Made by a program: the position numbers and the translations under genes. 64,000 nt of DNA, taken from assembly GCF_057098645.1 (NCBI RefSeq), contig NZ_CM169472.1, one strand, 5' to 3'. Shown here one piece after another: positions 3,425-8,316 of this stretch. The stretch's first letter is position 1. Each line of letters begins with the position of its first letter. Under the pieces are notes generated by a model. The model was not told the origin of the DNA. It was given only the letters and a program-made list of their open reading frames with translations, and searched no databases.

Positions 3425-4806
3425 TTTCCACCTCCTGCATCCCGCCCACGTTTTGCAGCCAGAGTCCAGCCTGATGAATGAGCTTCTCCGGGCTTATCAC
3501 CGGTCATACTGTTGCAGTGCCACAACGAGCCCCCCCACGTCACCGTATCGCCGGGGTGGTAAGTTTCGCCGATTCTGAACACACCACGGTAGAGCATCAC
3601 CGGCAGGGAAAATGTTTTTTCCGTACGCTGGCCACTGCTCTGCCGAACCACCACAGAGAACGACCGTTCACCCGTCATGCTGACGTCAATATCCGCCACC
3701 CCGTCAACCAGGCATTCCCATCCCCGCATCCCGTACGTTTTTTCATACGCCCGCCAGAGTCCACCCTGGTGTGTGGCATACGAGCCCCGGGGAAAGGATT
3801 TTTGATCGTCAATGGCGGGGAGTATTTCCAGTGCCGTGGCATCACGCCCGTCCTGCGGAGCCGGCAGGGCACTCACCGCCTCCAGAACCGCCTTCTGCAG
3901 AACATCCGGATCGTAGTCACGACCATCACGCGGAACAGGAATATGGCTTACGGCCTCCTTCACCATCTGTTCAAGCATCGGATGCACATCATCCGGAGTG
4001 ATACTTTTACCGTCTGCCGGTACCGGTATTTTCGCGACCGCATCATTCACCGCCTTCTGCAGAACATCCGGATCGTAGTCACGACCGTCGCGCGGAACAG
4101 GAATATGGCTCACTGCCTCTTTCACCATCTGCTCAATCATCGGACGCACATCATCGGGGGTGATACTTTTGCCGTCTGCCGGTACCGGAATATTCGCAAC
4201 CGCATCATTCACCGCCTTCTGCAGAACATCCGGATCGTAGTCACGACCGTCGCGCGGAACAGGAATATGGCTCACTGCCTCTTTCACCATCTGCTCAATC
4301 ATCGGACGCACATCATCGGGGGTGATACTTTTACCGTCCGCCGGTACCGGAATATTCGCAACCGCATCATTCACCGCCTTCTGCAGAACATCCGGATCGT
4401 AGTCACGACCGTCGCGCGGAACAGGAATATGGCTCACTGCCTCTTTCACCATCTGCTCAATCATCGGACGCACATCATCGGGGGTGATACTTTTACCGTC
4501 CGCCGGTACCGGTATTTTCCCGACCGCATCATTCACCGCCTGCTGCAGTACATCCGGATCATAGTCACGACCATCACGCGGAACAGGGATATGGCTTGCT
4601 GCGTCCTTCACCATCTGCTCAAGCATCGGACGCACATCATCACCCGTCACGCACTTCTGTAATACCACAGACTGAGAAGCCAGTTTTTCTTCAAACGTTT
4701 GTGCCTGCGCGGCTATTTTCTCCTCAAATGTACGCTGTAAATCCGCCAGCACCATGGCGAATTCTTCGCCCAGTGCACGAATAATGGACAGTTCCCGTTC
4801 CGTCAT
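3421..4806 (-). CDS. Repeat-containing structural protein (possible head decoration or morphogenesis protein)
   Basis: 461 aa with about five tandem 54-aa repeats (ITPDDVRPMIEQMVKEAVSHIPVPRDGRDYDPDVLQKAVNDAV...); lies between portal and connector genes. Confidence 0.5.
   Translation of the reverse strand: MTERELSIIRALGEEFAMVLADLQRTFEEKIAAQAQTFEEKLASQSVVLQKCVTGDDVRPMLEQMVKDAASHIPVPRDGRDYDPDVLQQAVNDAVGKIPVPADGKSITPDDVRPMIEQMVKEAVSHIPVPRDGRDYDPDVLQKAVNDAVANIPVPADGKSITPDDVRPMIEQMVKEAVSHIPVPRDGRDYDPDVLQKAVNDAVANIPVPADGKSITPDDVRPMIEQMVKEAVSHIPVPRDGRDYDPDVLQKAVNDAVAKIPVPADGKSITPDDVHPMLEQMVKEAVSHIPVPRDGRDYDPDVLQKAVLEAVSALPAPQDGRDATALEILPAIDDQKSFPRGSYATHQGGLWRAYEKTYGMRGWECLVDGVADIDVSMTGERSFSVVVRQSSGQRTEKTFSLPVMLYRGVFRIGETYHPGDTVTWGGSLWHCNSMTGDKPGEAHSSGWTLAAKRGRDAGGGK
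3880..4690. repeat. Tandem 162-bp direct repeats (about 5 copies) inside the 3421-4806 CDS
   Basis: The motif catcattcac recurs at 4041, 4203, 4365 and 4527, an exact 162-bp period; flanking sequence is near-identical between copies. Confidence 0.85.
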
Positions 4807-6378: not shown

Positions 6379-8316
6379 TCAGCCGCCGGACGCAGTTCCG
6401 TAGTTCACACCGGTGATCACAGCCACCGCCGCGGTACGGCGACGACGCCAGTTGATCCAGCGCTCCGCACGGATGGCCACGCTGCCGGTCTGGAACATGG
6501 AGACCAGCTCCACCGGTGACGGTGTGCTGCTGTCGCTGGTCGGTTCAGACTGCATCTCCAGTGACGCTTCACGGGACATATCCACCGCCACACCACCGTC
6601 ATCCGCCAGATAAATATCCGGCGCATTCACCAGTACCAGCTGGTCACCCACATACTGGGAGACAATCACCGGCAGCCCCTGGAAGGTCCCGCCCAGCAGG
6701 GTCATGTCCGGATATTCCTTCTGCCCCAGCGCATTTTTACGCATGGACAGCGCCAGGGCATTCGTGCTGGACATCAGCCAGACCGCACCGGTGGGCTGCA
6801 GATTTGCCGTCACAAACTGGCCAAACGCGGCCTCGGCATCCGCATCCGGATTACCGCTTGACGCCGTGCCCTTCACATCATGGGTGATGGACGCAGGGGA
6901 GACATCTGCCACCGCCGCTTTTTTCGGGTCCACAAAGTCTGTATCCAGACGCGCCACCACAGCTTCTGCCAGCGCATTACGGACCAGTGCATCAGCAGCC
7001 GGACTGGAAAAACGGATCAGCTCTTCCGTCAGTACCGCAATGGCCGACACCTTCGCATGACTGAAGGTGATGGACTCAAAATCAAACTTCGTCAGGGGTC
7101 TGGCCTTACCCTCCCCCACCCAGCCGGCAGCTCCGCCGGACACCTGGGCATGCACACGGATATTGAACGGAACCTGACGAAGGGCCGGGATCCCCCCCTG
7201 ACCAAATCGCCCGATAATGGTCTGCGGACGCAGGTAATCAATAAAGTCCTGCGCATATTCCTGATATTCAGACAGGCTGCCTGCCCACTGTGGGTCCGTG
7301 GTGGTCCCTGCCCCCACCGCCGATTTCAGAACATGATGCAGACGGCTGTCATCCGGATACTGACGGCGGGCCACTTCCAGGGCTTCGGAGCGGACACCTT
7401 TAGCCGCGGCCAGCGATTTGGCAAAACGTGCAAAACCAATCCCCTTATCCAGTTTCTGCTCCACACGGATCACCGGCGCAGAGGCCACCGTCACCACGTC
7501 ACCGTTACCAGCCTGTTTCACCGGCTGTGCCGTGGCGGCCTTACCGGCTTCCAGTTCACGCAGGCGCTTCAGATGCGCATCCACCTGACGGATTTCCGCC
7601 GCGGTGTTGTCGTAGTGCTCCTCCTCCTCCACATCCAGCGTGCGGCCTTCTTCTGCGGCTTTAGTCATGATCTCCTCCAGGGAGGCTGCCAGCGCCGCAC
7701 GCTTGTTTTCAAAACTTTTAATCTGTTCACCAATATTCATTGCTGACTTTTCCTTATGAAAAAGGGTTTTTGACTGTGCCGAAGCGCCGGCAGAAGATGC
7801 TGTTTTCACCACCGGTTTCCGGTTGCCGGACGCGGCAGAAAACGGTCGGTCGAAAGATTTAATGGTCCGGATGGTGCATTCCGCATTCGCAGGAACGGTG
7901 ACGGCAGACACCTCCATCAGTTCCCAGCGCAGAAAATGCATTCCGCCCCCGTCCAGAAAGGTGTATTCATGAGCCCGGAAGCCCACAGAAAGCCCCCTGA
8001 CCAGCCCGGTCTTAATGGCTGCCCATGCCTCATCCAGTCGGGCTGCCAGTTGCGACGGCATATCCGGTACGGGCTTCACCAGCGTTGCCGTGATTTCCAG
8101 CCCTTCCCTGCCCCGACGCACCGTACACTGGCCTACCGGGCGGGAATGGTCATGCTGCCAGAGAAACGGGATCGCACTGCCGAACTCCGCCCCCTCCGGC
8201 TCCAGGATGTCACCATCCCGATCCGGAGAAGGCGTTGACGCAATCCCGGTGATCACCCGTTCATCCTCACTGAAGGATTTCACCGTCAGCAGGGAACAGG
8301 CCCGTTTAAGAGTCAC
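6379..8316 (-). CDS. Prohead protease - major capsid protein fusion (HK97-like)
   Basis: N-terminal ITGIASTPSPDRDGDILEPEGAEFGSAIPFLWQHDHSRPVG and ELMEVSAVTVPAN resemble S78/U35 prohead protease motifs; C-terminal ~400 aa resemble HK97-fold capsid protein. Confidence 0.7.
   Translation of the reverse strand: MTLKRACSLLTVKSFSEDERVITGIASTPSPDRDGDILEPEGAEFGSAIPFLWQHDHSRPVGQCTVRRGREGLEITATLVKPVPDMPSQLAARLDEAWAAIKTGLVRGLSVGFRAHEYTFLDGGGMHFLRWELMEVSAVTVPANAECTIRTIKSFDRPFSAASGNRKPVVKTASSAGASAQSKTLFHKEKSAMNIGEQIKSFENKRAALAASLEEIMTKAAEEGRTLDVEEEEHYDNTAAEIRQVDAHLKRLRELEAGKAATAQPVKQAGNGDVVTVASAPVIRVEQKLDKGIGFARFAKSLAAAKGVRSEALEVARRQYPDDSRLHHVLKSAVGAGTTTDPQWAGSLSEYQEYAQDFIDYLRPQTIIGRFGQGGIPALRQVPFNIRVHAQVSGGAAGWVGEGKARPLTKFDFESITFSHAKVSAIAVLTEELIRFSSPAADALVRNALAEAVVARLDTDFVDPKKAAVADVSPASITHDVKGTASSGNPDADAEAAFGQFVTANLQPTGAVWLMSSTNALALSMRKNALGQKEYPDMTLLGGTFQGLPVIVSQYVGDQLVLVNAPDIYLADDGGVAVDMSREASLEMQSEPTSDSSTPSPVELVSMFQTGSVAIRAERWINWRRRRTAAVAVITGVNYGTASGG

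Follow-up and report, generated by a model that had tools for sequence, protein, structure and literature searches.

A conserved small gene between the protease-capsid fusion and portal genes in the head block of a lambdoid Escherichia coli prophage

The head genes of phage HK97 lie in the order terS, terL, portal (gp3), protease (gp4) and capsid (gp5), and an HNH gene, gp74, is found beside the terminase. In phage lambda, the 68-amino-acid (aa) head-tail joining protein gpW is encoded directly upstream of the portal gene B, gpFI acts as a DNA-packaging chaperone, and C and Nu3 are nested head genes. The present work concerns a block of head genes in a stretch of 64,000 nucleotides (nt) from contig NZ_CM169472.1 (NCBI RefSeq assembly GCF_057098645.1), hereafter referred to as the window, and in particular a 73-codon open reading frame (ORF) at 6113-6334, found on the minus strand between a protease-capsid fusion gene (6379-8316) and a portal gene (4803-6167). 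The original prediction read the order of the block as terS, terL, protease-capsid fusion and portal, and took the 73-codon ORF to be a stray at the junction, reflecting either an extra small gene or a portal that is longer by way of a frameshift. The minus-strand ORFs for all five were recovered, the coordinates given there are correct, and ORF calls, Pfam and PHROGs agree with the order proposed.

The closest described relatives are the Shiga toxin (Stx)-converting and lambdoid phages BP-4795 (ORF54-60), 2851, YYZ-2008, 1717 and Stx2a_WGPS2 (Sawaravirus), which share an identical gene order with the window at 90-99% DNA identity, followed by the Salmonella type represented by FSL SP-016, where the order is the same and protein identity is about 77% for the capsid fusion and about 68% for the portal. 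In BP-4795 the layout is exactly that of the window, with ORF56 as the capsid fusion, ORF57 of 222 nt, ORF58 as a 454-aa portal and ORF59 of 461 aa. Nothing essential sets the window apart from the Stx-converting phages, among whose records the repeat number of the gene that follows the portal, here called gene X, and the length of a G tract at the portal/X junction (G5 or G6) vary. A 7.2-kb block is matched at 90-97% identity in 95 phage records, including Stx1a-, Stx2a- and Stx2c-converting phages, with BP-4795, 2851, YYZ-2008 and 1717 among those of the same layout, and a 3.7-kb core is present in 1,251 of 5,426 complete E. coli genomes, with a single match at 100%. RefSeq lists the small ORF as the hypothetical protein WP_001063023.1, and it is also annotated in Stx2a_WGPS2, as gp58, and in FSL SP-016, as SP016_00165; the 93 phage records that carry it either label it as hypothetical or leave it unannotated. 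Gene X is called a second "portal protein" in the Stx and lambdoid phages and in FSL SP-016. No publication dealing with the small gene, or with how the genes of this head module are ordered, came up in a literature search.

Compared with HK97, the window has the same PF04860 portal (E=7e-81), Peptidase_S78 protease and PF05065 capsid, the families that define an HK97-like head module, together with a gp6-like connector, a gp10-like protein and an HNH gene beside the terminase. It differs in that the portal gene comes after that of the capsid and not ahead of that of the protease, in that protease and capsid form a single ORF, and in the presence of the small gene and gene X. The capsid-before-portal order thus departs, as predicted, from the canonical portal-protease-capsid arrangement, but it is not a local oddity, for the order HNH, terS, terL, protease-capsid, small gene, portal, gene X and head-tail connectors is fixed across the whole clade. 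Relatives from Salmonella, Serratia, Pantoea and metagenomes keep it, even where, as in the most distant group, protease and major capsid protein (MCP) are separate genes. Order, fusion and small ORF all belong to the ordinary, already annotated layout of a widespread HK97-like prophage family, and the finding is an ordinary one because capsid-before-portal is normal, and on record, in that family. Nor does the description of the ORF as a stray hold, since BP-4795, Stx2a_WGPS2, RefSeq and FSL SP-016 all have the same order with the small gene annotated, the very finding that the original prediction had named as counting against it. What is added here is an account of the overlap by loss of a stop codon, a definition of the small-gene family and of its linkage to the portal, and three inferences, which concern a split Shine-Dalgarno (SD) site, an internal capsid start and a G5/G6 toggle.

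The case for the small gene rests on conservation and not on length, as ORF length is by itself uninformative in this region of 55-59% GC, where many alternative-frame ORFs of 60-290 codons are found. The ORF product matches PHROG 829, a small phage protein, with E=1.4e-38, residues 1-63 aligning to positions 1-63 of the 63-position profile. A word-indexed protein search with the 73-aa sequence returned E. coli matches only, and those at 56-76% identity proved to be the same DNA with a frameshift or a wrong gene call, so that they give no independent evidence. An exhaustive HMMER search yielded 19 matches, few because gene callers often skip the small ORF, and these served as seeds. In relatives from Salmonella, Serratia and Pantoea with a fusion protein about 75% identical, a gap of around 200 nt in which no gene had been called separates capsid from portal; translation of this gap gives small-gene homologues of 55-56 aa. 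Collection of the family with a degenerate DNA pattern of conserved residues, combined with exact-protein look-ups, brought together 65 distinct members, typically 51-58 aa in length, with homologues reaching down to about 31-35% identity that still keep the frame, the start and the conserved core. The next ORF is the portal in all 65, at 40-100% identity to that of the window, and the upstream gene is the capsid in every member with enough upstream DNA. L089, a distant relative in which protease and capsid are encoded apart, has a PemK/MazE toxin-antitoxin pair (at 4254-4825 of that locus) between the capsid and the small gene. Despite this insertion, the small gene of L089 still adjoins the portal.

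The pattern of variation within the family is that of a translated sequence. Entropy is concentrated at the third codon position (1.45, against 0.78 and 0.60 at the first and second), and, once the codons fixed by the search pattern have been removed, the ratio of nonsynonymous to synonymous polymorphism (pN/pS) is 0.33-0.56 in the frame of the small gene against at least 1.0 in both other frames. Nine residues of the small protein are invariant: M1, Y6, T10, H11, D12, G16, A26, L29 and G33. On this comparative evidence the 73-codon ORF is a bona fide protein-coding gene, belonging to a family of proteins of about 55 aa whose gene always abuts that of the portal. The suggestion of an extra small gene is therefore upheld by the 65 homologues, the purifying selection and the fixed place before the portal.

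The overlap with the portal start that had been noted is also real, and amounts to 55 nt in a different frame. In relatives, the stop codon of the small gene either overlaps the portal ATG by one base, as TAATG or TGATG, or precedes it by 3-19 nt. Across lineages the portal starts at -1, +3, +10, +18 or +19 from this stop, with differing relative frames, and in FSL SP-016 the small gene is of the ancestral 55-aa form and ends at the portal ATG. The end of the gene reads GGC GAA TGT GG in the window against GGC TAA TGT GG in Salmonella, such that codon 56 (GAA, 6169-6167) occupies the site of the relatives' stop and the ancestral core corresponds to codons 1-55 (6170-6334). These alignments reveal the stop/start overlap, TAATG or TGATG, as the ancestral arrangement. 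In the E. coli lineage the stop has evidently mutated to GAA, and the ORF reads through 18 further codons, out of frame, across the first 55 nt of the portal gene; the overlap exists because this stop was lost. Independent C-terminal extensions are seen in two other relatives, L091 (91 aa) and L092 (81 aa). A GGAG (6179-6176) lies 8 nt before the portal ATG, and both this ATG and the MWN(P/L) N-terminus that follows are conserved in the Salmonella, Serratia and Pantoea relatives. Moreover, the 454-aa ORF spans positions 2-321 of the 321-position PF04860 profile (E=6.8e-81), as expected of a complete HK97-family portal. The comparison thus places the start of the portal at 6167, with no need of a 5' extension.

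Between the capsid stop and the ATG of the small gene, a GGAGG (6369-6365) lies immediately before a 9-bp GC-rich hairpin (6364-6343), which a spacer of 8 nt separates from the ATG. A stretch of 53 nt here folds with -22.5 kcal/mol (z=-2.7). When hairpins were detected sequence by sequence in 49 distinct upstream regions of the fused-capsid clade, all 49 were found to contain one of 7-9 bp, mostly with a GNRA loop and with differing stem sequences, which ends 5-12 nt (mode 7) before the ATG. A GGAG lies 0-2 nt 5' of the stem in 48 of the 49, and an SD-like motif between hairpin and ATG is present in none of them. From the fold and its conservation we infer that the small gene is translated from the GGAGG, which the hairpin would bring to about 7-8 nt from the ATG, forming a candidate split ribosome-binding site. 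Ribosomes would bind the GGAGG, the hairpin would shorten the spacing, and translation of the small gene would follow; the stop/start overlap further implies that translation of the small gene may be coupled to that of the portal. A precedent is provided by genes 38 and 25 of phage T4, where a hairpin cuts the SD-AUG spacing from 22 to 5 nt and from 27 to 11 nt, respectively (PMC3014915). The candidate SD of the small gene is likewise parted from the AUG by a stable hairpin, which would reduce the spacing from 25-30 nt to about 7-8 nt. The two systems differ in that the hairpin of the window also lies just after a highly expressed capsid gene, where it may act as a terminator or stabiliser.

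A structural model of the small protein was produced with AlphaFold from a 12-sequence alignment. Residues 1-40 are predicted with confidence (pLDDT about 87), with three strands (2-6, 18-21, 35-37) and one helix (23-32), giving a conserved core of about 38 aa with a beta-beta-alpha-beta topology, followed by a Lys/Arg-rich tail that is predicted to be disordered. In fold comparisons the best-populated matches are the rRNA-binding N-domains of bL9, with up to 33% identity over 40 residues, and the same predicted fold is also found in protein-binding modules, namely GINS and the C-domain of gpFI. The small protein has no sequence membership of the bL9 N-terminal domain, as judged by Pfam Ribosomal_L9_N and PDB sequence matches. 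It likewise has no sequence similarity to gpW or gpFI of lambda and no Pfam match at E<=10. Its predicted core differs from the fold of gpW, and gpFI, at 132 aa, has an additional N-domain, its gene lying downstream of that of the capsid. On the basis of the portal linkage and the weak fold match, the small protein may possibly be an accessory of portal-vertex assembly or DNA packaging, an assignment that we put forward tentatively.

Two explanations would deny that the ORF is a gene of its own. According to the first, it is a chance ORF, and only the hairpin matters, as a terminator or messenger RNA (mRNA) stabiliser after the capsid gene; the many alternative-frame ORFs of similar length nearby, the lack of an SD directly ahead of the ATG and the several annotations that skip the ORF all fit such an account. 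It is nevertheless very unlikely, given 65 distinct homologues that keep frame, start and core down to about 31-35% identity, the dominance of third-position substitutions with pN/pS below 0.6 solely in this frame, and the confident, compact fold predicted by AlphaFold. The other explanation is the longer portal of the original prediction, in which the 73-codon ORF would supply the N-terminus through a frameshift, either programmed or mutational. The overlap of the two ORFs in different frames invites it, and PGAP indeed marks the portal of a 100%-identical stretch as "frameshifted", but that mark concerns the 3' end, at the portal/X junction, and not the 5' end. Relatives retain the portal ATG, GGAG and MWN(P/L) N-terminus, their small-gene stop lies at or before the portal ATG, and the frame relation varies; the small protein, moreover, matches no portal family, and the 454-aa ORF covers the entire PF04860 profile. 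A programmed frameshift, as in the tail chaperone G/GT, would call for a conserved slippery site and a conserved frame relation, but between the small ORF and the portal a stop always intervenes and the offsets vary. The conserved portal start, the intervening stop and the variable frames together refute the longer portal at its 5' end, leaving it extremely unlikely.

Two further explanations accept the gene and read its purpose differently. In one, it is mainly a leader cistron, whose translation would bring ribosomes to the portal start, termination and reinitiation setting a low dose of portal, while the peptide itself has little function. This fits the stop/start overlap, or the gap no wider than 19 nt, seen in all 65 relatives, and the C-terminal end, which varies freely and has been lengthened on at least three occasions. 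However, the portal has its own well-spaced GGAG, the stop of the E. coli lineage, 55 nt inside the portal, should weaken any coupling and yet is carried by BP-4795 and others, and the core, with its nine invariant residues and confident fold, shows purifying selection, all of which make a mere leader unlikely. In the other, the small protein is a nucleic-acid-binding regulator of late mRNA or DNA that, for instance, tunes portal translation. The bL9 N-domains, as the best-populated fold matches with up to 33% identity over 40 residues, and a tail rich in Lys and Arg speak in its favor, but there is no sequence-level relationship to bL9, the fold is shared with the protein-binding GINS and gpFI C-domain, and no conserved RNA target is evident besides the upstream hairpin; we regard a regulator of this kind as rather doubtful.

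The gene upstream of the small one encodes, as predicted, a 645-aa protease-capsid fusion, in which a prohead protease (S78), a linker, a delta/scaffold-like region and an HK97-fold MCP follow one another in a single ORF (phrog_617, E=4e-258). Pfam places Peptidase_S78 (PF04586) at aa 48-152 with E=1.2e-8, which is above the cutoff, and Phage_capsid (PF05065) at aa 386-635 with E=1.1e-14; the protein also matches phrog_10, major head protein. H55 (in WQHD) and S110 (in GLSVGF), which by analogy we take to be the S78 catalytic residues, do not vary among 40 relatives. Both domains are carried by more than 100 listed cluster representatives, 580-650 aa long, from Salmonella, Enterobacter, Klebsiella, Serratia, Kosakonia and Pantoea. 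Single-ORF "capsid and protease fusion" genes are also annotated as a matter of routine in actinobacteriophages (clusters AN, AU, AW and EE), whose hosts are unrelated. The gene starts with a GTG at 8316, 5 nt after an AGGAGG that directly follows a strong hairpin with a T-run (8355-8338, minus strand), resembling an intrinsic terminator and situated between the terL stop and the fusion gene. This hairpin and the one downstream of the capsid gene together bracket the capsid gene.

Within the fusion, the protease-capsid linker (aa 160-190) is variable and ends in an invariant Met193 (MNIGEQIKSFE..., ATG 7740-7738). An AGGA, at 7754-7751 in the window, is found within -16 to -5 of this ATG in 39 of 40 relatives, 6-10 nt upstream. 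Outside E. coli the AGGA is encoded by Lys-Gly (AAA GGA) and in E. coli by Lys-Glu-Lys (AAG GAA AAG), and the Gly codon at the site is GGA in 28 of 28 cases, against 6.9% GGA at 40 other conserved Gly columns. The nucleotides of the site are thus kept while the amino acids change, which suggests a free capsid product, and the fusion gene probably also yields a 453-aa capsid protein from the AGGA and the ATG at Met193 (7738-7754, minus strand). Such a free capsid beside the 645-aa fusion would avoid the incorporation of one protease per capsid subunit, and the internal start would set the protease-to-capsid ratio. The arrangement would resemble the nested C and Nu3 genes of lambda, in that an internal in-frame start in the protease ORF gives a shorter head protein, with the difference that here the shorter, putative product would be the capsid protein itself.

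At the other end of the portal gene, its stop and the start of gene X (3421-4806, 461 aa, minus strand) overlap as ATGA at 4803-4806, and a G5 tract (4822-4818) lies 12 nt upstream. With G5, portal and X are separate, and with G6 they form a single portal-X ORF of 833-861 aa. In a set of 100 related E. coli loci, G5 is found in 63 and G6 in 37. A tally of complete E. coli chromosomes by exact 60-mer match, covering two flanking haplotypes, gave 747 G6 and 52 G5 for the CTGAGA haplotype, and 30 G6 and 151 G5 for CTGCGA, the haplotype of the window. The junction is fused in 2851, YYZ-2008, vB_EcoS_phi330, 569R3, 783R2, 705R7 and Stx2a_WGPS6 and split in BP-4795, 1717 and most Stx1a phages; since both states occur in named phages, both are viable. 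Outside E. coli, portal and X are always separate, the two genes overlapping by -4, -8 or -14 with a frame relation that varies, and neither the G-run nor any other slippery site is conserved at the junction, which makes a conserved programmed frameshift unlikely. The G5 frame preserves the ancestral C-terminus of the portal, RG-I/F-L-x-K-stop, and this comparison identifies the split state as the ancestral one. A hypermutable G5/G6 tract may toggle portal and X between separate and fused products. The "frameshifted" flag of PGAP and the 859-position PHROG 2271 "portal" profile are database artefacts that arise from these split and fused states.

Gene X itself consists of a long N-terminal helix, 54-aa tandem repeats and a C-terminal beta domain that ends in a CBM5/12-like chitin-binding fold. 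The repeats have a period of 162 nt in 4.7 copies (3887-4641) and vary in number among relatives, giving X proteins of 285-463 aa. Although databases often annotate it as a second "portal protein", gene X resembles a decoration protein or a fibre, which might belong to the head or the neck.

Taken together, these features allow a speculative joint reading, which we consider improbable as a whole, in which a portal-coupled assembly or packaging factor of about 55 aa would be made from a hairpin-bridged site, and in which two recoding-like devices, the internal capsid start and the G5/G6 toggle, would tune the stoichiometry of the head module. A number of points weigh against the account of the block given here. 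The pattern used to collect the family was built from the family's own conserved residues, and the sample is biased toward intact members. No experimental or proteomic evidence was found for production of the small protein or for its presence in virions, and the family has no Pfam, NCBIfam or PDB sequence match, with Pfam taken down to E<=10. In the MAFFT alignment used for an RNAalifold covariation test of the hairpin, the stems of different lineages do not fall in register. After the capsid gene, the hairpin might serve, in addition to this role or in its place, as a partial terminator or to stabilise the mRNA 3' end, and a T-rich run follows it in many relatives. Finally, the conserved KG..M at the internal start could partly reflect a constraint at the protein level, such as a cleavage site.

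As a discovery the locus carries little weight, given that around one in four complete E. coli genomes, and many records of Stx phages, already have its layout annotated. Its value lies more in annotation: the small ORF, passed over by several annotations, is a genuine gene with a true conserved length of about 55 aa. The PGAP label of a "frameshifted portal pseudogene" is misleading for the allele of the window, portal and X being separate in all relatives outside E. coli, and the "second portal protein" is actually a distinct, repeat-containing protein with a C-terminal domain of carbohydrate-binding type. If the internal start and the split ribosome site are true, they would explain how fused protease-capsid and a 12-copy portal can be made in very different doses from one late transcript.

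The remaining genes of the block are those expected. An HNH gene (10892-11257) is followed by terS, encoding the terminase small subunit (10038-10601; PF03592, E=1.5e-8; phrog_641, E=3e-68), and by terL, encoding the large subunit (8380-10041; PF03354 and PF20441; phrog_9), and further genes for a head-tail connector, a head-closure protein, a gp10-like protein, a tail terminator and the major tail protein are also found in the window, all on the minus strand. The locus is thus very probably the standard set of head-morphogenesis genes found in lambdoid E. coli prophages of the BP-4795/2851/YYZ-2008 type, whose heads are HK97-like. Taken whole, the window is a lambdoid prophage of E. coli with a mosaic make-up. 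E. coli PEC240 is 100% identical to the head module over 4700-8400 and colinear with the window only from about 3 to 11.5 kb, and the best match to the stretch at 13.7-36.9 kb is strain 14EC001, at 99.7%; the two matches illustrate the modular exchange of the head block among lambdoid prophages. Elsewhere in the window, a 590-aa ORF (20411-22183) is found on the plus strand, opposite to the surrounding nin-region genes, in the stretch of lowest GC content (34.5%). This ORF has no Pfam or PADLOC match and is a "hypothetical protein" in the best-matching genome; it is a possible candidate for a moron or defence gene.

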